From a virus, in UHGV virus genome UHGV-0092352: DNA of 13,933 bases, one strand, 5' to 3'. Every line of letters begins with the position of its first letter. Within the stretch, counting starts at the first letter, position 1. The position numbers were made by a program, and so were the translations under genes. Under the pieces are notes generated by a model, which saw only the letters and a program-made list of their open reading frames with translations, made no database searches and was not told where the DNA came from. Positions 2,722 through 13,174 of this stretch are shown here, piece after piece.

Positions 2722-3252
2722 ATGAATAAACAATACAAACTGGTTGTTAAAGGGATAAATAATTACCCGGATAAGATTACTGCTACTGTGGCACTGGAAA
2801 TTGGTGGGTATCCGTCACTGTTGTTGCCATATGTGGCGATTAGTCTTGACCGTACTGAAGGTGCCACGCTGGAGTTTTACGAAGCTGAGGCGAAAAAACA
2901 GGCGAAGCAGTTTTTCATGGATATTGCTGCCGCTTTATGTGAAGGGGATGAGCAGTCGCCGGAAAAGCGCCCCATAATTTTAGAGGCGCAGGATGTGTTG
3001 ATAACCTACAGAGGAAAACTACCGGGAATAATTACGGGTTCTCTGAAGACGCCACCGACGGCATTGCGGTCAGAAAACGATGATATTGAATCACGCATTG
3101 AAAAACTGGAGTGCTATATCGCTGAATTGAAAAAAAGCATCCCAACAAAAAATGAGGTGCTTGCAGCAGATGAAATGAAAGAAACTATTCTTGATCGCGC
3201 GGCGCATCTAAGCTGCGCTTCACTGTTGAAAGAGCATCTTCAGCAGCCTTGA
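2722..3252 (+). CDS. Hypothetical protein (176 aa) inserted between holin and endolysin; function unknown
   Basis: ATG 2722 lies 4 nt after the S stop, with GGGAGAG 8 nt upstream (translationally coupled position). GC content is clearly lower than flanking phage genes (about 40% in the first 120 nt by hand count). No motif I recognise; N-terminal beta-like region and C-terminal helical region. Confidence 0.6.
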   Translation: MNKQYKLVVKGINNYPDKITATVALEIGGYPSLLLPYVAISLDRTEGATLEFYEAEAKKQAKQFFMDIAAALCEGDEQSPEKRPIILEAQDVLITYRGKLPGIITGSLKTPPTALRSENDDIESRIEKLECYIAELKKSIPTKNEVLAADEMKETILDRAAHLSCASLLKEHLQQP

Positions 3253-3485
3253 GGAATCTTTTATCATCACGAGCAACTGTCTTTGGTATTTCTTTAATTA
3301 GATGTTCCATTTCGGCGATCAGGTAATCTGACACAGCGTTATTTTTACTTAGTGCATCCATTGCTTTGATTATCTTTGCGAGGCAGCCATCTCGCATTGT
3401 TGAGTTTACGCCAGTGCCCACCACTGGCGGGCTGAAGACTTAACATATCCAGGGATTCGGAACCGATAAATCCTGATAAATATCC

Positions 3486-4019
3486 ATGAACGCAAAAATC
3501 AGATACGGCCTGTCGGCTGCCATTCTGGCGCTGATTACTGCAGGCGCATCTGCGCCTGACATTCTCGACCAGTTTCTGGATGAAAAAGAAGGTAACCACA
3601 CCACAGCATACCGTGATGGTTCTGGTATATGGACCATCTGCCGTGGTGCCACCCGGGTGGATGGTAAGCCTGTCGTCCCCGGCATGAAGTTGTCGAAGGA
3701 AAAATGCGACCAGGTTAACGCCATTGAGCGTGATAAAGCGCTGGCGTGGGTGGAGAAAAACATCAGAGTGCCGCTGACCGAACCCCAGAAAGCGGGGATC
3801 GCGTCATTCTGTCCGTACAACATTGGTCCCGGTAAGTGTTTCCCGTCGACGTTTTATAAACGAATTAATGCAGGCGATCGCAGGGGGGCGTGTGAGGCGA
3901 TTCGCTGGTGGATTAAGGACGGTGGCAGAGACTGCCGTATTCGCTCAAACAACTGTTACGGTCAGGTATCCCGTCGTGACCAGGAGAGCGCGCTGGCGTG
4001 CTGGGGAATCGACAGATAA
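3486..4019 (+). CDS. R: SAR endolysin (T4-lysozyme-like muramidase, GH24) with N-terminal signal-anchor-release domain
   Basis: N-terminus MNAKIRYGLSAAILALITAGASAP is a Gly/Ala-rich SAR helix. Catalytic E-8aa-D-5aa-T spacing is present (EGNHTTAYRD...GSGIWT). Resembles 933W / phage 21 R from memory. No recognisable SD precedes ATG 3486. Confidence 0.9.
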   Translation: MNAKIRYGLSAAILALITAGASAPDILDQFLDEKEGNHTTAYRDGSGIWTICRGATRVDGKPVVPGMKLSKEKCDQVNAIERDKALAWVEKNIRVPLTEPQKAGIASFCPYNIGPGKCFPSTFYKRINAGDRRGACEAIRWWIKDGGRDCRIRSNNCYGQVSRRDQESALACWGIDR

Positions 4020-4109
4020 GCAGAATATTTTGCTGAAAAATGCCGTTGGTCAACGCGGGCGGATAACACGAAGTCCTGTGAACTGGCAAAACCTAAGTGA
4101 ATAAAAGTA

Positions 4110-4150
4110 AAAACCCCGTTTGTTGGCAGCAAGCGGGGTTTTGTGTTTCT
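4110..4150. terminator. Bidirectional intrinsic terminator between R and the downstream small genes
   Basis: Stem AAAACCCCG (4110-4118) / CGGGGTTTT (4134-4142), extendable through inner pairs to about 15 bp. A-rich tract on the left and U-rich tract (GTGTTTCT) on the right, so it looks like a terminator in both orientations. Confidence 0.6.
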
Positions 4151-4175
4151 GACCTTGGATAAGGCAAGGGAGAAC

Positions 4176-4358
4176 ATGGAAAAGTATAAACGAATTCTGT
4201 TGAGGTTGACTATGAAAAACGGCCTTGAACTGAAAGCGCCTGTAACTGATGACATCAGCAGAGCACTGGCTTTTGCCATTAAGTGGGTGGCGGTCGGTGT
4301 TGCTGTGTCCCCGATGCTGTATGGGCTGGCAAAACTGGTCATTGCGTTGAAATCGTGA
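4176..4358 (+). CDS. Small hypothetical membrane protein (60 aa, C-terminal TM helix)
   Basis: ATG 4176 (MEKYKRILLRL...) preceded by AAGGGAG. C-terminal hydrophobic segment AFAIKWVAVGVAVSPMLYGLAKLVIAL. The listed ORF start at 4143 (GTG) is less likely. Confidence 0.4.
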   Translation: MEKYKRILLRLTMKNGLELKAPVTDDISRALAFAIKWVAVGVAVSPMLYGLAKLVIALKS

Positions 4359-4372
4359 AGGGAGGATTAAGC

Positions 4373-4504
4373 ATGTCAGACAAACTCATAACGCTGGCGA
4401 AGATCCTCTGTGTAATTGTCGGCATTTCATTTTCACTAATGCTGGTTGCCATTTTCTTTTCCACCGCCTGGCGAGTCCTGACGTTATCGGGACTGGTGGG
4501 GTGA
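4373..4504 (+). CDS. Small hypothetical membrane protein (43 aa, single TM helix)
   Basis: Strong SD GAAGGGAGGA 5 nt before ATG 4373. [33 protein letters not shown]... is a single TM helix. Stop TGA at 4502-4504, 7 nt before the Rz start. Confidence 0.5.
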
Positions 4505-6323: not shown

Positions 6324-6881
6324 GTGCTGACAACGCAAAAACGAAAATTTGCGCTGGCGCTCATGTCCGGGAAAAACAAAACAGCGTCAGCCATTGCCGC
6401 CGGTTATTCGGCGAAGACCGCCAGGGTTAAAGGCTCGCAGCTGGCAAAAGATCCGGAGGTGCTCGCGTTTATAGCCCGTAAACAGTGCGAAACGGTGGAG
6501 GTGGATGAGGTTCCTGTTTACCGGCAGAAAAAATCAGAGCAGGAGGATAAACCCCGTCGCCGTGAGGCGGCTGCAATACCACAGCCGGACGAAAACAATC
6601 CGGAGATGCCACCGTCCGCGGTGATGTCTCCTGGTATTGAATATATGGAGGATGGTCTTCCCGATCCGGTGAAAGCCATGGGGCGGATCCTGGTGGAAAA
6701 CCTCTGCATTGATCCGAAACTGGCACTGGATGCGGCCTGGCGTCTGGCGCAGTTCACGCACCATAAAAAAGGGGATACCGGGAAAAAATCGGCAAAAGGT
6801 GATGCCGCGAAAAAAGCGGCTAACCGTTTTGCGGTGCCACCCCGACTGGTGGTGAATAACGATAATGAGGGCAACGGATGA
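6324..6881 (+). CDS. terS: Terminase small subunit (P27-family-like)
   Basis: GTG start at 6324 with GGAGGAG just upstream (in-frame stop at 6258). N-terminal HTH-like region KRKFALALMSGKNKTASAIAAGYSAKTA. Stop overlaps the large-terminase start (ATGA). Confidence 0.75.
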   Translation: MLTTQKRKFALALMSGKNKTASAIAAGYSAKTARVKGSQLAKDPEVLAFIARKQCETVEVDEVPVYRQKKSEQEDKPRRREAAAIPQPDENNPEMPPSAVMSPGIEYMEDGLPDPVKAMGRILVENLCIDPKLALDAAWRLAQFTHHKKGDTGKKSAKGDAAKKAANRFAVPPRLVVNNDNEGNG

Positions 6882-8539
6882 TACCTGTATGGAGCACAGC
6901 CTGCCCGGACTGGGCAGAGCGCCTGAAAAAGGGGCTGTCGATTATTCCGGATCCGATTTATCCGGACGAGGCCGCACATGCCCTGGCGATTTTTAAACAA
7001 CTGCGGATTGTGGATGCACCTGGTAGCCCTACGTTCGGGGAGTCCTGTGCACCGTGGGTGTTTGACCTGGTGGCGGCCCTGTTTGGCTCCTACGATGCGC
7101 AGACCGGTGTACGCCATATCAAGGAAGTTTTTATCCTTATCCCCAAGAAAAACTCGAAGTCCACGCTGGCCGCGGGGATCATGATGACGGCGCTGTTACT
7201 GAACTGGCGGCAGGCGGCGGGTTACACGATTCTGGCCCCGACTGTGGAGGTGGCGGCCAACGCCTTCAACCCTGCCCGGGATATGGTACGACGTGACGAT
7301 GATCTGGATGACCTCTGCCAGGTACAGACCCATATCCGGACCATCACCCACAGGGTGACAGACACCACCCTGAAGGTGGTGGCAGCCGATCCGAATACGG
7401 TGTCCGGTATCAAGTCCGTGGGTACGCTGATTGATGAGTTGTGGCTGTTTGGCAAGCAGTACAAGGCGGAGGACATGTTACGTGAAGCCATCGGCGGGCT
7501 TGCCTCCCGCCCGGAAGGGTTTGTGGTGTATACGACCACCCAGTCGAATGAACCGCCCGCCGGGGTGTTCAGACAGAAACTGCAGTACGCCCGGGATGTG
7601 CGCGACGGCAAAATTCATGATCCGCACTTTCTGCCGGTGATATTTGAACACCCTCCTGAAATGGTGGAAAGCGGGGCTCACCTGCTGATGGAAAACCTCG
7701 CCATGGTCAATCCGAATCTCGGCTATTCAGTGGATGAGGCCTTTCTGTACCGGGAGTACCGTAAAGCCCGGGAAGCCGGTGAAGAGACATTCCGGGGGTT
7801 CATGTCAAAACACGCCAATGTGGAAATTGGTCTTGCCCTGCGCTCTGACCGCTGGGCGGGGGCTGATTTCTGGGAAGAGCAGGGCCGTTGTATCAGCCTG
7901 GACGATATCCTGCGTCGTGCTGATGTGGTGACGGTGGGGATTGACGGCGGAGGGCTGGATGATCTGCTGGGGATGTATGTGATTGGGCGTGACCGGGAGA
8001 CCCGCGAATGGCTGGGCTGGGGCCATGCCTGGGCGCATGAAACCGCGGTGGTCCGACGGAAGAGCGAGGCGTCCCGGTTTCAGGATCTTGTTGCCTGTGG
8101 AGATATGACCATTGTCCGGCGTATCGGGGATGACACGGCGGAAGTGGCGGAATATGTGCGTCGCATTCATGAGGCTGAGTTACTGGACCATATCGGTATT
8201 GACCCGTCAGGGGTGGGGCAGATTCTGGATTCACTGGCGGAAGCCGGGATCCCCGACGGAATTGTGGTGGGGATAAGCCAGGGCTGGAAACTGGGCGGGG
8301 CCATTAAAACCACCGAGCGCAAACTGGCTGAAGGGGTGCTGGTGCATGGTGACCAGCCCCTGATGGCCTGGTGTGTCGGCAATGCCCGGGTGGAGCCTAA
8401 AGGTAACGCCATTCTTATCACCAAACAGGCCAGTGGACGGGGAAAAATTGACCCGCTGATGGCGCTGTTCAATGCGGTCTCCCTGATGTCCCTTAACCCG
8501 GAACCGAAAAAGAAAGAATATGCGGTTTTTTTCATATAA
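6878..8539 (+). CDS. terL: Terminase large subunit
   Basis: 553 aa. Start ATG 6878 overlaps the TerS stop. Large multi-domain protein in the canonical position downstream of the small subunit; resembles HK97/P27-type TerL from memory. Confidence 0.9.
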   Translation: MIPVWSTACPDWAERLKKGLSIIPDPIYPDEAAHALAIFKQLRIVDAPGSPTFGESCAPWVFDLVAALFGSYDAQTGVRHIKEVFILIPKKNSKSTLAAGIMMTALLLNWRQAAGYTILAPTVEVAANAFNPARDMVRRDDDLDDLCQVQTHIRTITHRVTDTTLKVVAADPNTVSGIKSVGTLIDELWLFGKQYKAEDMLREAIGGLASRPEGFVVYTTTQSNEPPAGVFRQKLQYARDVRDGKIHDPHFLPVIFEHPPEMVESGAHLLMENLAMVNPNLGYSVDEAFLYREYRKAREAGEETFRGFMSKHANVEIGLALRSDRWAGADFWEEQGRCISLDDILRRADVVTVGIDGGGLDDLLGMYVIGRDRETREWLGWGHAWAHETAVVRRKSEASRFQDLVACGDMTIVRRIGDDTAEVAEYVRRIHEAELLDHIGIDPSGVGQILDSLAEAGIPDGIVVGISQGWKLGGAIKTTERKLAEGVLVHGDQPLMAWCVGNARVEPKGNAILITKQASGRGKIDPLMALFNAVSLMSLNPEPKKKEYAVFFI

Positions 8540-8564
8540 CCCTGTTCACACTGTAACCATCACG

Positions 8565-8590
8565 AACCGCTCCGGCGGTTTTTTTATTTT
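8565..8590 (+). terminator. Terminator-like hairpin between terminase and capsid genes
   Basis: Stem AACCGC / GCGGTT with tetraloop TCCG, followed by TTTTTATTTT. Lies between the TerL stop (8539) and the SD of the capsid gene (8592-8597). Confidence 0.35.
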
Positions 8591-8602
8591 CAGGAGGCTG
8601 AT

Positions 8603-10540
8603 GTGACTCTTAAACGGGCCTGTTCCCTGCTGACGGTGAAATCCTTCAGTGAGGATGAACGGGTGATCACCGGGATTGCGTCAACGCCTTCTCCGGATCG
8701 GGATGGTGACATCCTGGAGCCGGAGGGCGCGGAGTTTGGCAGTGCGATCCCGTTTCTCTGGCAGCATGACCATTCCCGCCCGGTGGGGCAGTGTACGGTG
8801 CGCCGGGTCAGCGAAGGGCTGGAAATCACGGCAACACTGGTGAAGCCCGTACCGGATATGCCGTCGCAACTGGCTGCCCGGCTGGATGAGGTCTGGGCGG
8901 CCATTAAGACCGGGCTGGTCAGGGGGCTGTCCGTGGGCTTCCGTCCCCATGAATACACCTTTCTGGACGGAGGCGGACTGCATTTTATGCGCTGGGAACT
9001 GATGGAGGTGTCTGCCGTCACCGTGCCCGCGAATGCGGAATGCACCATCCGGACCATTAAATCTTACGACCGCCCGTTTTCTGCCGCGTCCGGCAACCGG
9101 AAACCGGTGGTGAAAATCGCATCTTCTGCCGGCGCTGCGGCACAGTCAACAACCGTTTTTCATAAGGAAAAGACCATAATGAATATTGGCGAACAGATTA
9201 AAAGTTTTGAAAACAAGCGTGCAGCGCTGGCAGCCTCCCTTGAGGAGGTCATGACCAAAGCCGCAGAGGAAGGGCGCACGCTGGATGTGGAGGAGGAAGA
9301 GCATTACGACAACACCGCAGCGGAAATCCGTCAGGTGGATGCGCACCTGAAGCGCCTGCGTGAACTGGAAGCCGGTAAGGCCGCCACGGCGCAGCCGGTG
9401 AAACAGGCCGGTAACGGGAATGTGGCCGCGGTGGCTTCTGCGCCGGTGATCCGTGTGGAGCAGAAACTGGATAAGGGGATTGGCTTCGCCCGCTTTGCCA
9501 AATCGCTGGCTGCGGCTAAAGGCGTCCGATCTGAAGCCCTGGAAGTGGCCCGTCGTCAGTATCCGGATGACAGTCGTCTGCATCATGTCCTGAAATCGGC
9601 AGTGGGCGCGGGGACCACCACGGATCCGCAGTGGGCAGGCAGCCTGTCTGAATATCAGGAATACGCACAGGACTTTATTGATTACCTGCGTCCGCAGACC
9701 ATTATCGGGCGATTTGGTCAGGGCGGGATCCCTGCACTTCGTCAGGTGCCGTTCAATATCCGTGTGCACGCCCAGGTGTCCGGCGGTGCTGCCGGCTGGG
9801 TGGGTGAGGGTAAGGCAAAACCCCTGACGAAGTTTGATTTTGAATCCATCACCTTCAGTCATGCGAAAGTGTCGGCCATTGCGGTACTGACGGAAGAATT
9901 GATCCGTTTTTCCAGTCCGGCTGCTGATGCACTGGTCCGTAATGCGCTGGCGGAAGCGGTGGTGGCGCGTCTGGATACAGACTTTGTGGACCCGAAAAAA
10001 GCCGCAGTGGCAGATGTCTCCCCGGCGTCCATCACCCATGATGTGAAGGGCACGGCATCAACCGGTAACCCGGATGCGGATGCAGAGGCTGCGTTTGGAC
10101 AGTTTGTGGCAGCAAACCTGCAGCCCACCGGTGCGGTCTGGCTGATGTCCAGCACCAATGCCCTGGCACTGTCCATGCGTAAAAATGCGCTGGGTCAGAA
10201 GGAATACCCGGACATGACCCTGCTGGGTGGCTCCTTCCAGGGGCTGCCGGTGATTGTCTCCCAGTACGTGGGTGACCAACTGGTGCTGGTGAATGCCCCG
10301 GATATTTATCTGGCGGATGACGGCGGCGTGGCAGTGGATATGTCCCGCGAGGCATCACTGGAAATGCAGTCTGAGCCGACCGGCGACAGTACCACGCCGT
10401 CCCCGGTGGAGCTGGTTTCCATGTTCCAGACAGGCAGCGTGGCCATCCGTGCGGAGCGCTGGATCAACTGGCGTCGTCGCCGTACCGCGGCAGTGGCGGT
10501 GATCACCGGTGTGAACTACGGAACTGCGTCCGGCGGCTGA
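8603..10540 (+). CDS. Fused HK97-family prohead protease - scaffold-like domain - major capsid protein
   Basis: GTG start 8603 with AGGAGG 5 nt upstream. N-terminal ~180 aa carry prohead-protease hallmarks (FLWQHDHSRPVG; GLSVGF; LMEVSAVTVPANAE). A coiled-coil delta-like segment is followed by an HK97-fold capsid domain. One uninterrupted 645-codon frame. Confidence 0.85.
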   Translation: MTLKRACSLLTVKSFSEDERVITGIASTPSPDRDGDILEPEGAEFGSAIPFLWQHDHSRPVGQCTVRRVSEGLEITATLVKPVPDMPSQLAARLDEVWAAIKTGLVRGLSVGFRPHEYTFLDGGGLHFMRWELMEVSAVTVPANAECTIRTIKSYDRPFSAASGNRKPVVKIASSAGAAAQSTTVFHKEKTIMNIGEQIKSFENKRAALAASLEEVMTKAAEEGRTLDVEEEEHYDNTAAEIRQVDAHLKRLRELEAGKAATAQPVKQAGNGNVAAVASAPVIRVEQKLDKGIGFARFAKSLAAAKGVRSEALEVARRQYPDDSRLHHVLKSAVGAGTTTDPQWAGSLSEYQEYAQDFIDYLRPQTIIGRFGQGGIPALRQVPFNIRVHAQVSGGAAGWVGEGKAKPLTKFDFESITFSHAKVSAIAVLTEELIRFSSPAADALVRNALAEAVVARLDTDFVDPKKAAVADVSPASITHDVKGTASTGNPDADAEAAFGQFVAANLQPTGAVWLMSSTNALALSMRKNALGQKEYPDMTLLGGSFQGLPVIVSQYVGDQLVLVNAPDIYLADDGGVAVDMSREASLEMQSEPTGDSTTPSPVELVSMFQTGSVAIRAERWINWRRRRTAAVAVITGVNYGTASGG

Positions 10541-10584
10541 GTCTGATGAGGAGGGCGGGAGGCGCGAGCTTCCCGCAGTAACTG

Positions 10585-10806
10585 ATGGCAAAAATCCAGT
10601 ATCTGCAGGGCACGCATGATGCCCGGGCCGGGGATATCCGTGATGTGGCACAGCCGTGTGCGGAGGTGCTGGTTCGCCTGGGGAAGGCGGAGTACATCAC
10701 AGTGCGACGTCCGGCAGGTCAGAAAAAGAAACGTGATGCGGAGCATGGCGAATGTGGAACCTTTTGCGGCGAACCCGAAAAAACCAGAAATCAGGACGTG
10801 ATGTAA
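10585..10806 (+). CDS. Hypothetical small ORF between capsid and portal genes
   Basis: 73-codon ORF filling the 211-bp gap. Weak SD; the C-terminal third is low-complexity and overlaps the portal start by 55 nt. May not be a real gene. Confidence 0.25.
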   Translation: MAKIQYLQGTHDARAGDIRDVAQPCAEVLVRLGKAEYITVRRPAGQKKKRDAEHGECGTFCGEPEKTRNQDVM

Positions 10807-12116
10807 AAGAGGTGGGCTGGACCAGCCTGTTTCAGGCGGTGGCTGAGCCCTTTTCCGGCGCCTGGCAGCAGGGCGTGAAAGCCGATCCTGAAGCCGTCCT
10901 CTCCTTTCATGCGGTGTTTGCATGTATTTCGCTGATATCCCAGGATATCGCCAAAATGCGGCTGCGTCTTATGCAGACGGATGCGCATGGGATACGCAGG
11001 GAAACGCGCCGGGGGGATATTGCCCGTCTCTGTCGTCGTCCCAATGCACAGCAGAATCGTATCCAGTTTTTTGAACTGTGGCTGAACGCCAAACTGCGTC
11101 ACGGCAATACGGTGGTGCTGAAAATCCGTAACTCCCGGGGGCAGATCAAAGAACTGCGTATTCTGGACTGGAGCCGGGTTGAACCTCTGGTGGCGGATGA
11201 CGGCGAGGTGTTCTATCGCATTACACCGGACCGGAACTGCGGGATCACGGAGGCGGTGATGGTGCCTGCCAGGGAAGTGATCCACGACCGGTTTAACTGT
11301 TTTTTTCATCCGCTTGTGGGGCTGCCGCCGGTGTATGCTGCCGGGCTGGCTGCCACGCAGGGGCATCATATTCAGGCAAATTCAACGTCTTTTTTCAGAA
11401 ATGGCGGCAGGCCGTCCGGGGTGATTGAGATCCCCGGCAGTATAACGGAAGAAAATGCGAAAAAACTGAAGAGCAACTGGGACAGCGGGTATACCGGCGA
11501 AAATGCGGGGAAAACGGCGATCCTGAGCAACGGGGCGAAATATAACCCCACGACGTTTTCACCGGTGGATGCGCAGACGGTGGAACAGCTGAAAATGACG
11601 GCTGAAATTGTCTGTTCGGTGTTCCGTGTCCCGGCCTACAAGATTGGTGTGGGACAACCGCCTTCCAGTGACAACGTGGAGGCGCTGGAGCAGCAGTATT
11701 ATTCCCAGTGTCTGCAGACGCTGATTGAGTCCATTGAGCTGTTACTGGATGAGGCGCTGGAAACAGGGGAAAACGAGAGCACGGAGTTTGACGTCACCAC
11801 GCTGCTGAGAATGGACAGCGAACGTCGCATGAAAACGCTGGGGGATGCGGTGAAAAATACGCTTCTCACGCCCAATGAGGCCCGTAAACGTGAGAATCTG
11901 CCGCCCCTGGCAGGAGGCGATGCACTGTATCTTCAGCAGCAGAACTACAGTCTGGAGGCGCTGTCCCGTCGTGATGCCCGTGAGGATCCGTTCGCGTCTT
12001 CCGGGAAAACGTCGTCAGGCACACGCCAGGAGGGCGCGTCTGACGGTAATAAGGCCATAAGCGAAACAGAGCGTGATGCGGTGAAGGCGATGTTCAGGGG
12101 GATACTGCGAAAATGA
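10752..12116 (+). CDS. Portal protein (HK97-family-like)
   Basis: 454 aa. N-terminus MWNLLRRTRKNQ...WTSLFQ is typical of HK97-type portals. In-frame stop at 10734-10736 makes ATG 10752 the first start (GGAG 9 nt upstream); GTG 10812 is an alternative start. Confidence 0.85.
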   Translation: MWNLLRRTRKNQKSGRDVKEVGWTSLFQAVAEPFSGAWQQGVKADPEAVLSFHAVFACISLISQDIAKMRLRLMQTDAHGIRRETRRGDIARLCRRPNAQQNRIQFFELWLNAKLRHGNTVVLKIRNSRGQIKELRILDWSRVEPLVADDGEVFYRITPDRNCGITEAVMVPAREVIHDRFNCFFHPLVGLPPVYAAGLAATQGHHIQANSTSFFRNGGRPSGVIEIPGSITEENAKKLKSNWDSGYTGENAGKTAILSNGAKYNPTTFSPVDAQTVEQLKMTAEIVCSVFRVPAYKIGVGQPPSSDNVEALEQQYYSQCLQTLIESIELLLDEALETGENESTEFDVTTLLRMDSERRMKTLGDAVKNTLLTPNEARKRENLPPLAGGDALYLQQQNYSLEALSRRDAREDPFASSGKTSSGTRQEGASDGNKAISETERDAVKAMFRGILRK

Positions 12117-13174
12117 CTGAGCGTGAACTGTCCATTATCCGTGCGCTGGGTGAAGAATTCTCCACAGTGCTGGCGGATTTACAGCGCACATTTGAGGGGA
12201 AGATGGCCTCGCAGGCACAAGCGTTTGAAGAGAAACTGACTTCCCTGTCGGCGGTATTACAGAAGCATGTGACGGTGGATGAGGTGCGTCCGGTTCTGCA
12301 GGCGATGGTGGATGAGGCTGTGGGGGCCATTCCGGTACCGCGTGATGGTCGTGATTATGATCCGGATGTACTGCAGCAGGCGGTGAATGATGCGGTCGCA
12401 AATATTCCGCAGCCGGCGGACGGTAAAAGTCTCACCCCGGATGATGTGCGTCCGATGCTTGAACAGATGGTGAAGGAGGCGGTAAGCCATATTCCTGTTC
12501 CGCGTGATGGTCGTGACTACGATCCGGAAGTATTGCAGAAGGCGGTGAATGATGCGGTCGCAAATATTCCTGTACCGGCGGACGGCAAAAGTATTACCCC
12601 CGATGATGTGCGTCCGATGCTTGAGCAGATGGTGAAAGAGGCCGTAAGTCATATCCCTGCTCCGCGTGACGGTTGTGACTATGATCCGGATGTTCTGCGG
12701 AAGGCGGTTCTGGAGGCGGTGAATGCCCTGCCGGCTCCGCAGGACGGGCGTGATGCCACGGCACTGGAAATACTCCCTGCCATTGACGATCAAAAATCCT
12801 TTCCCCGGGGCACGTATGCCACACACCAGGGCGGACTCTGGCGGGCGTATGAAAAAACGCACGGGATGCGGGGATGGGAATGCCTGGTTGACGGGGTGGC
12901 GGATATTGACGTCAGCATGACGGGTGAACGGTTGTTCTCTGTGGTGGTCCGGCAGAGCAGTGGCCAGCGTACGGAAAAAACATTTTCCCTGCCGGTGATG
13001 CTCTACCGCGGTGTGTTCAGAGCCGGTGAAACCTACCACCCCGGCGATACGGTGACGTGGGGGGGCTCGCTGTGGCACTGCAACAGTATGACCGAAGATA
13101 AACCCGGAGAAGCTCATTCATCAGCCTGGACCCTGGCTGCAAAACGTGGGCGGGATGCAGGAGGTGGAAAGTGA
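12113..13174 (+). CDS. Repeat-containing head-module protein with a C-terminal carbohydrate-binding-like motif (candidate decoration or fibre-like protein)
   Basis: Start ATG 12113 overlaps the portal stop (ATGA). Contains three in-frame 54-aa tandem repeats (IPVPRDGRDYDP.. / IPxPADGKSxTPDD..). C-terminus has a Y..GD.V.W.G.LW.C...PG....W pattern resembling CBM5/12 (ChtBD3) modules, from memory. Confidence 0.75.
   Translation: MTERELSIIRALGEEFSTVLADLQRTFEGKMASQAQAFEEKLTSLSAVLQKHVTVDEVRPVLQAMVDEAVGAIPVPRDGRDYDPDVLQQAVNDAVANIPQPADGKSLTPDDVRPMLEQMVKEAVSHIPVPRDGRDYDPEVLQKAVNDAVANIPVPADGKSITPDDVRPMLEQMVKEAVSHIPAPRDGCDYDPDVLRKAVLEAVNALPAPQDGRDATALEILPAIDDQKSFPRGTYATHQGGLWRAYEKTHGMRGWECLVDGVADIDVSMTGERLFSVVVRQSSGQRTEKTFSLPVMLYRGVFRAGETYHPGDTVTWGGSLWHCNSMTEDKPGEAHSSAWTLAAKRGRDAGGGK
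12284..12769 (+). repeat. Tandem direct repeat, 3 x 162 bp, in-frame within a coding sequence
   Basis: GTGCGTCCG... units begin at 12284, 12446 and 12608 (period exactly 162 bp). Copies 2 and 3 are near-identical and copy 1 is more diverged. Each unit holds two ~27-aa sub-repeats. Confidence 0.85.

Follow-up and report, generated by a model that had tools for sequence, protein, structure and literature searches.

The question raised by this locus is whether one uninterrupted reading frame, in which a prohead protease and a major capsid protein are joined, is translated into one protein or into two. The window considered here is a stretch of 13,933 nt of the virus genome UHGV-0092352, and the frame occupies its positions 8603-10540. 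At the boundary between the protease and capsid parts of the frame lies an in-frame ATG preceded by a Shine-Dalgarno (SD) sequence. The conservation of this site in fused relatives, and its correspondence to the start of the separate capsid gene in unfused ones, suggest, with a probability that we would put at roughly 0.7, that it is used and that two co-terminal proteins are made, namely a 69-kDa protease-delta-capsid protein and a 48-kDa delta-capsid protein. The parts of the open reading frame (ORF) on which the argument turns are the following:

8603-10540, plus strand: full-length ORF, made up of prohead protease, linker, delta/scaffold-like segment and HK97-fold capsid; GTG start, 645 aa, 69.1 kDa
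8590-8605, plus strand: initiation region of the full-length product (AGGAGG, 5 nt, GTG)
8744-9058, plus strand: core of the S78 (HK97-type) prohead protease, residues 48-152 (Pfam PF04586, TIGR01543)
9017-9178, plus strand: variable low-complexity linker, residues ~139-192, with the putative internal ribosome-binding site at its 3' end
9163-9168, plus strand: internal SD TAAGGA, in frame within His-Lys-Glu
9179-9181, plus strand: internal in-frame ATG, codon 193, the proposed nested start
9179-10540, plus strand: proposed nested gene for the delta domain and major capsid, 453 aa, 48.2 kDa, N-terminus MNIGEQIKSF
9185-9385, plus strand: helical delta/scaffold-like segment, residues ~195-261, predicted helices
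9758-10507, plus strand: HK97-fold capsid domain, residues 386-635 (PF05065, TIGR01554)

The product of this ORF appears to be a natural fusion between an HK97-type (S78) prohead protease and a capsid protein bearing an N-terminal delta (scaffold) domain. Residues 48-152 match the Pfam family Peptidase_S78 (PF04586) with 35.5 bits against a cut-off of 21, by which Pfam counts the region as a family member; the match to TIGR01543 (HK97 proheadase) at residues 48-154 scores 46.4 bits, which is under the equivalog cut-off of 59, and the protein is hence not an NCBI equivalog. His55 (in LWQHD) and Ser110 (in GLSVGF) are invariant in both alignments used, A1 (19 sequences) and A2, and are candidates for the catalytic residues. 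The C-terminal part is matched by Phage_capsid (PF05065; 53.1 bits against a cut-off of 24.2, residues 386-635) and by TIGR01554 (HK97 major capsid; 78.1 bits against 27.5, residues 204-584 and profile positions 3-355). Both domains are covered in one polypeptide by the profile phrog_617 (E = 1.9e-261; residues 1-639 against profile positions 7-626 of 626), and a sequence search of solved structures returned a single weak capsid match, 9d9w (E = 0.0018). By its domain matches the ORF thus has the architecture of the long member of a nested pair, a protease at the N-terminus followed by a C-terminal region that takes part in procapsid assembly.

These two parts are connected by a variable linker. 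In A1 it shows indels and low conservation and carries a conserved AG(A/T)(A/S) motif. An AlphaFold model, built on the shallow 19-sequence alignment and used for the linker and delta helices only, is poor overall (mean predicted local distance difference test score, pLDDT, 40.4); it leaves residues 139-193 without secondary structure at a pLDDT of 22-27, from which they are predicted to be disordered, and its sole confident parts are helices at residues 195-222 and 229-261 (pLDDT 73-76). Two long helices after a disordered linker fit a delta/scaffold domain, and a weak coiled-coil Pfam match lies at residues 189-210. An earlier note on this DNA had described a single 645-codon frame uniting protease, coiled-coil delta/scaffold-like segment and capsid, with an in-frame start and an upstream SD at codon 193. 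The first of these statements agrees with the translation of the ORF, the Pfam matches, PHROG 617 and the model, and the second with the coordinates of the site and the TAAGGA at 9163-9168. The full-length start, which is a GTG in the window, is an ATG in most homologues and, at the DNA level, in every other one examined.

The ATG at 9179 is exactly in frame, (9179-8603)/3 being 192, and upstream of it, at 9163-9172, lies TAAGGAAAAG. The TAAGGA in it forms a duplex of -6.2 kcal/mol with the 3' end of 16S rRNA, with an aligned spacing to the ATG of about 7 nt, and in the window alone the strength of this SD ranks 62nd among 637 codons and 6th among 53 in-frame NTG codons. Of the other in-frame ATGs, the one at 8987 has a nearby GGAGG at the poor spacing of 13, and that at 9251 (codon 217) has a GGAGG at a distance of just 2 nt, at which initiation would be inefficient. 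Close relatives keep Met217, and the nucleotide context of 9251 differs in the one homologue compared. Base composition and folding give the internal site further features of an initiation region. Its vicinity in the window has a GC fraction of 0.33, as against 0.60 for the whole ORF, and in most of the ORFs compared the interval from -25 to +15 around the internal start falls within the top 1-3% for AT content. The 81 nt around 9179 fold at -6.9 kcal/mol, as against -24.6 kcal/mol for the upstream start, whose SD and GTG are paired in the minimum-energy fold. Over 25 loci the energy required for opening is 7.9 kcal/mol at the internal site and 11.3 kcal/mol at the upstream one (Wilcoxon p = 4e-5); the SD duplex of the upstream site is the stronger one in this comparison (-9.1 against -6.2 kcal/mol), and for the initiation region at 8590-8605 it is given as -10.3 kcal/mol.

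An AT-rich stretch upstream of 9179, together with the precedent of herpesvirus UL26.5, might also be taken to mean that a capsid-only product arises from a shorter transcript with a promoter inside the protease part. However, no sigma-70-like promoter was found within 8300-10800, where about 0.8 would be expected by chance, and lambdoid late genes are carried on one Q-antiterminated transcript. Such a transcript would, moreover, still use the same SD and ATG. We therefore regard this origin of the product as highly improbable; as the ORF has no sigma-70-like promoter inside it, a second product would share the same mRNA.

The evidence that carries the case for internal initiation comes from comparison of the site among fused homologues. 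Their DNA, drawn from reference genomes and metagenomes, provided 81 non-identical contexts with 37-100% protein identity to the window, from Enterobacterales, Proteus and Phlomobacter, several alpha- and betaproteobacterial groups and diverse metagenome clades. At the protein level Met193 is invariant in A1, where it stands right after the indel-bearing linker and right before the conserved MNIAEQIKSFE. Among 139 fused representatives, 123 have a Met within 8 residues upstream of the "EQI" anchor, 12 a Val and 3 a Leu, and in the one that remains the Met lies just beyond this range; the background frequency of Met is 2.45%. At the nucleotide level the codon at the internal start is ATG in 75 of the 81 contexts, GTG in 5 and TTG in 1. 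All five Val codons are thus GTG (p = 0.008, given how codons are used in the ORFs concerned), and the lone Leu is encoded by TTG, which accounts for 5% of the Leu codons in its ORF. No fused locus was found without an NTG at this place, including two loci that were checked by hand.

The SD shows a comparable degree of conservation. A core of at least 4 nt (AGGA, GGAG or GAGG) at an aligned spacing of 3-9 nt is present in 75 of the 81 contexts, as against 9.4% of the remaining codons of these ORFs, and about 97% of the bases at positions -12 to -9 are purines. When SD energy is ranked within each ORF, the site has a median percentile of 0.10, and 95% of the contexts lie below 0.2. The residues that the SD encodes are variable (KG, KE, QG, TG, QE, EEG, PEEG and PKEG). 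The codon preceding GGA always ends in A (AAA, CAA or ACA), and that preceding GAG-GGC always ends in AG (AAG, GAG or CAG). Among the Gly codons located 2-6 codons upstream of the start, 42 of 62 are the rare GGA, whereas elsewhere in the same ORFs it makes up 246 of 3,753 (6.6%), a 10-fold enrichment. The second codon is AAN in 71 of the 81 contexts. As the residues vary while the SD nucleotides persist, the constraint would seem to act on nucleotides rather than on amino acids, and the internal start codon and its SD are, on this comparative evidence, maintained by selection in the manner of a nested gene pair. The significance of the site derives from its conservation across relatives and from its placement at the domain boundary.

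Conservation of an SD-like core at the nucleotide level, and at a domain boundary, could in principle also reflect a translational pause or standby element that promotes no initiation, for example one that gives the protease time to fold before the delta domain emerges. A pause needs no start codon 6-10 nt downstream, whereas the strict choice of ATG, GTG or TTG, the AAN in second position and a weakly folded setting rich in AT are typical marks of initiation regions, and the same site is a real start in the unfused relatives described below. A pause without initiation is accordingly very unlikely. Independent initiation at codon 193, giving the capsid-only product that had been proposed from the window sequence, is by contrast supported both by the NTG and SD conserved across fused relatives and by the homologous start of the unfused capsid genes.

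These unfused relatives are 32-39% identical to the window protein and share with it the order TerL (large terminase), protease, capsid, small ORF and portal, and the SD of their capsid gene is TAAGGA or GAGAGG; they differ in that the protease stop lies 9-23 nt before the capsid start or overlaps it. Prophages of Snodgrassella alvi have a protease gene of 234 aa, a 23-nt spacer with GAGAGG and a 439-aa capsid gene that starts MTIEEQI. In the Burkholderia phage vB_FUBS1, where this gene order is likewise TerL, protease, capsid, small ORF, portal, a prohead protease of 212 aa is followed by a capsid protein of 444 aa; the TAA stop of the protease belongs to a TAAGGA, and the capsid start (MTIAEKIK) follows 10 nt later. 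The protease and capsid genes of the Moraxella phage Mcat5 overlap in ATGA. A metagenome locus, L060, has an in-frame TAA within TAAGGA, 9 nt before a GTG start, and another, L110, is unfused with its capsid gene starting at a Met homologous to M193. The capsid genes of S. alvi, vB_FUBS1, Mcat5 and L060 align with the window protein from M193 onward, and for three stand-alone capsid representatives (P0200, P0251 and P0265) the alignment begins at residues 1-3 of the protein itself and at residues 193-194 of the query. The internal site can thus be recognized as the ancestral start of the capsid gene, and the fused and unfused states are evidently separated by very few mutations.

Two further observations concern the arrangement of the protease and capsid parts. 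Protease and linker together measure 192 aa in the window, as against 205-234 aa in unfused forms; loss of a C-terminal targeting tail of the protease in the fused forms was considered on this account and dropped, the difference being too small. In L033, from a Parasphingorhabdus metagenome-assembled genome, a capsid-like match (query residues 309-636) lies upstream of a protease-like match (query residues 3-156) within 3001-4427, the reverse of the usual order, which may represent two adjacent elements or a rearrangement.

How long the internal site has persisted in the fused state depends on the age of the fusion, and its distribution indicates that it is old and stable. The same uninterrupted frame of 644-648 aa is present in thousands of sequences. 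In 1,255 of 5,426 complete E. coli genomes it occurs at 2,977 places, with up to 7 copies per genome, under the name "phage major capsid protein" given by the Prokaryotic Genome Annotation Pipeline (PGAP). Full-length fused homologues with 57-77% identity are found in prophages of Salmonella, Enterobacter, Klebsiella, Serratia, Pantoea, Erwinia and Proteus, and fused homologues with 34-49% identity in alpha- and betaproteobacteria. When 1.84 billion cluster representatives were searched with HMMER, 12,595 matched, and 139 of the best 150 representatives, from clusters at no more than 50% identity, are full-length fusions of about 630-690 aa. The Enterobacterales fused forms at 68-77% protein identity share a homologous linker, which indicates that this clade inherited the fusion, and within it the start and SD persist despite saturating synonymous divergence, as they do in far more distant fused lineages.

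This distribution also bears on the most trivial explanation of the long frame, that a sequencing or assembly error erased the stop between two genes. The window does have a frame-disrupting difference elsewhere, in the portal gene, where it has G5 and phage 2851 has G6. The open frame of the fused gene, however, recurs in 93 phage records, at the 2,977 places in E. coli genomes and in more than 130 clusters at no more than 50% identity, by which an artefact is refuted, and we assign it a practically negligible likelihood. The hidden stop between the domains that the earlier note had named as the finding that would overturn its proposal is thereby excluded. The same note had presented the fusion as a departure from the usual separate genes, which is correct in so far as the fusion is real; it is less unusual than was implied, being already annotated, having its own PHROG family and having published counterparts.

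The fusion as such is, then, common, already known and not novel. GenBank records label it "major head protein/prohead protease" or "capsid and scaffold". NCBIfam also has a family for a "prohead protease/major capsid protein fusion protein" (NF045541), but the window protein reaches only 54.2 bits against its cut-off of 525, over residues 48-287 only, and does not belong to it; the two are different fusion families. Among published cases, S78 protease-capsid fusions have been described in thaumarchaeal proviruses (PMC6563490) and fusions of a ClpP protease with a Mu gpT-type capsid protein in Paracoccus prophages (ClpP-gpT; PMC6536676), and the combination of protease and capsid protein in one polypeptide is reported to be common in small siphoviruses. 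These share with the window the idea of one polypeptide, but belong to different sequence families. A limited literature search found no mention of an internal start in papers on protease-capsid fusions, and an earlier description is possible.

Against use of the internal start a number of points have to be set, some of which would fit a polyprotein read only from GTG 8603, in which every subunit is the 69-kDa fusion, the capsid is released by autoproteolysis and the internal SD and ATG are a relic or are kept for protein-level reasons. Public annotations all show a single coding sequence, the internal start being annotated in no database record examined, and a limited literature search found no proteomics, N-terminal sequence or ribosome profiling for 9179. 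Judged on the window alone, the internal SD is moderate (within the top 10% of codons) and not beyond chance, and the Met together with the Lys/Gly/Glu-rich stretch could be kept in part by constraints at the protein level. A rough volume estimate suggests that a shell of full-length subunits only, with protease and capsid at 1:1, is not physically impossible. In a crude comparison the totals of SD duplex and opening energy are similar for both starts and predict no excess of the short product, and no conclusion on stoichiometry is drawn from them. The sequences compared are, furthermore, related, so that the p-values overstate their independence, and a Kolmogorov-Smirnov (KS) value of 1e-47 is not a true probability; the argument instead rests on the number of deep lineages, on the contrast with the variable flanks and on the signal in codon choice. 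It is the short mutational distance between fused and unfused states that makes a relic conceivable in a young fusion. The present fusion, however, is old, as seen from the homologous linker of the Enterobacterales and the fused forms in other classes, and although the linker has diverged with indels, the NTG is kept in every context and the SD core in nearly all; Met has been replaced by GTG or TTG only, and GGA is strongly enriched where the SD requires it. As an unused relic in a freely changing linker should have decayed, the internal site is likely used, and translation of the full-length polyprotein alone is, in our assessment, unlikely.

If both starts are used, initiation at GTG 8603 would yield the 69-kDa protease-delta-capsid protein and initiation at the TAAGGA/ATG of 9179 the 48-kDa delta-capsid protein. 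The two products would co-assemble into the procapsid through their shared capsid and delta parts, so that the tethered protease would be carried inside the shell covalently, in a number that follows from how often each start is used relative to the other. Once the shell is assembled, the protease would digest both the linker and the delta domains and also itself, following the pattern of HK97. By analogy with known nested genes, the internal start would thereby set the stoichiometry of protease to capsid.

Such an arrangement can be compared with two kinds of known systems. In lambda C/Nu3, Mu I/Z and herpesvirus UL26/UL26.5 the scaffold gene is nested in frame in the 3' part of the protease gene, and the C-terminal region common to both products directs the protease into the procapsid and determines how much of it enters; the shared part in systems of the lambda C/Nu3 type is a free scaffolding protein, the capsid gene is separate, and the proteases belong to S49 (lambda) or are assemblins (herpesviruses). 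The window resembles lambda C/Nu3 in that its long product carries the protease at the N-terminus and a shorter product with the same C-terminus, here predicted, is initiated in frame within the gene; it differs from lambda C/Nu3 in that the shared part is the whole capsid protein with a built-in delta scaffold and in its protease family. HK97, on the other hand, uses two genes, for the gp4 protease and for the gp5 capsid protein with its delta domain, and gp4 enters the shell non-covalently. With HK97 the window shares the S78/TIGR01543 protease, the PF05065/TIGR01554 capsid and, by prediction, a helical segment of delta type at the N-terminus of the capsid part, which stands in for a separate scaffold; unlike in HK97, all are in one frame and the portal gene lies downstream of the capsid gene.

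If the internal start is indeed used, a very frequent structural gene of E. coli and Enterobacterales prophages, including Shiga toxin (Stx) converting phages of the Stx1 and Stx2c types, encodes two products, of which annotation records only one. The dose of maturation protease in a phage whose scaffold is built in would then be set by attaching it covalently to some of the capsid subunits, and the principle of nested genes known from lambda C/Nu3, Mu I/Z and herpesvirus UL26/UL26.5 would extend to the capsid protein itself. All of this can be drawn together in a more encompassing proposal, which we hold to be only somewhat better than an even bet: thousands of proteobacterial prophages, with carriers among about one quarter of complete E. 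coli genomes, would contain an unannotated nested gene; most of their capsid protein would come from the internal start; the full-length protein would be a minority species with the sole role of supplying a fixed dose of tethered protease, as a third solution to protease encapsidation beside the non-covalent tail of HK97 and the protease-scaffold fusions of lambda and herpesviruses; and single mutations in the SD-embedded stop (TAAGGA) would take lineages from the fused to the unfused state or back. The practical reach of these considerations extends to the annotation of genomes, to the way in which virion proteomes are read and to engineered HK97-like capsids or nanocompartments in which the number of internally tethered cargo molecules is fixed. 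Were the internal start unused, the finding would reduce to a well-known fusion gene, and even a used nested start, though neat, would not greatly surprise a specialist in phage assembly.

Just upstream of the internal start the linker contains a further conserved element. The segment SAGAAA at ~9126-9143 (residues ~175-180), 10-20 residues upstream of M193, represents a short motif conserved throughout the family; distant members have it as PGA(S/T)G and Enterobacterales as AGATA. The Enterobacterales copies show hardly any variation, synonymous sites included (GCTGGCGCTACAGCA), and form a 4-bp hairpin, with one compensatory change in the window. The motif is a candidate for an autoproteolytic site or a small RNA element. 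In the window, 9126-9141 can also pair with 9216-9233 in a long GC-rich stem around the AT-rich region of the internal start (141 nt, -45.9 kcal/mol, z = -3.6). Coding segments rich in Ala form this stem, and 16 related sequences do not conserve it. The idea that a conserved RNA structure presents the internal start was rejected, as RNAalifold on 17 Enterobacterales sequences retains only the trivial 4-bp hairpin, with almost no covariation.

The surroundings of the fused gene identify the window as a portion of a long-tailed lambdoid or Stx-type E. coli prophage. The neighboring genes are:

6324-6881: small terminase (TerS), first in the gene order
6878-8539: large terminase (TerL), upstream of the fused ORF
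10585-10806, plus strand: small ORF of 73 aa, PHROG 829, function unknown, between the capsid and portal genes
from 10752: portal gene, split into the ORFs 10752-12116 and 12113-13174

The region 8400-10700 matches 93 phage records with 90-99% identity, including 2851, YYZ-2008, JLK-2012 and many Stx1a and Stx2c converting phages; phage BP-4795 is matched too, at the protein level. The "major head protein/prohead protease" (PHROG 617) of phages 2851 (EP2851_53), BP-4795, YYZ-2008 and JLK-2012 is the same gene, with 95-99.5% protein identity and the same neighbors (TerS, TerL, fused gene and portal), and the internal start is annotated in none of these records. The window differs from this group in its GTG start and in the frameshifted portal gene that adjoins the fused gene.

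A terminator-like hairpin, GAACCGC-TCCG-GCGGTTT followed by a T-run, is located on the plus strand at 8564-8589, between TerL and the fused gene and a few bases 5' of the SD of the latter. A hairpin with a T-run is present at the matching place in Enterobacterales, Proteus, Phlomobacter and Candidimonas loci, with loops that differ and stems that differ in some. It might be a partial terminator or an mRNA-stabilizing 5' hairpin of the capsid message. Downstream of the fused gene, the small ORF at 10585-10806 overlaps the portal start by 55 nt; it is without annotation in phage 2851, and a small ORF is found at the same position in the Burkholderia phage vB_FUBS1 and the Pseudomonas phage IME307.

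The portal gene is a single ORF of 859 aa in phage 2851, and the copy in the window is broken by a 1-nt deletion (12092-12116; G5 against G6), which points to a defective prophage or to a homopolymer sequencing error. Its C-terminal extension contains a tandem repeat at 12329-12708, with a unit of 162 nt (54 aa) in 2.3 copies at 87% match. The window is 54 aa shorter than phage 2851 in this repeat, and the copy number of the repeat therefore differs among phages.

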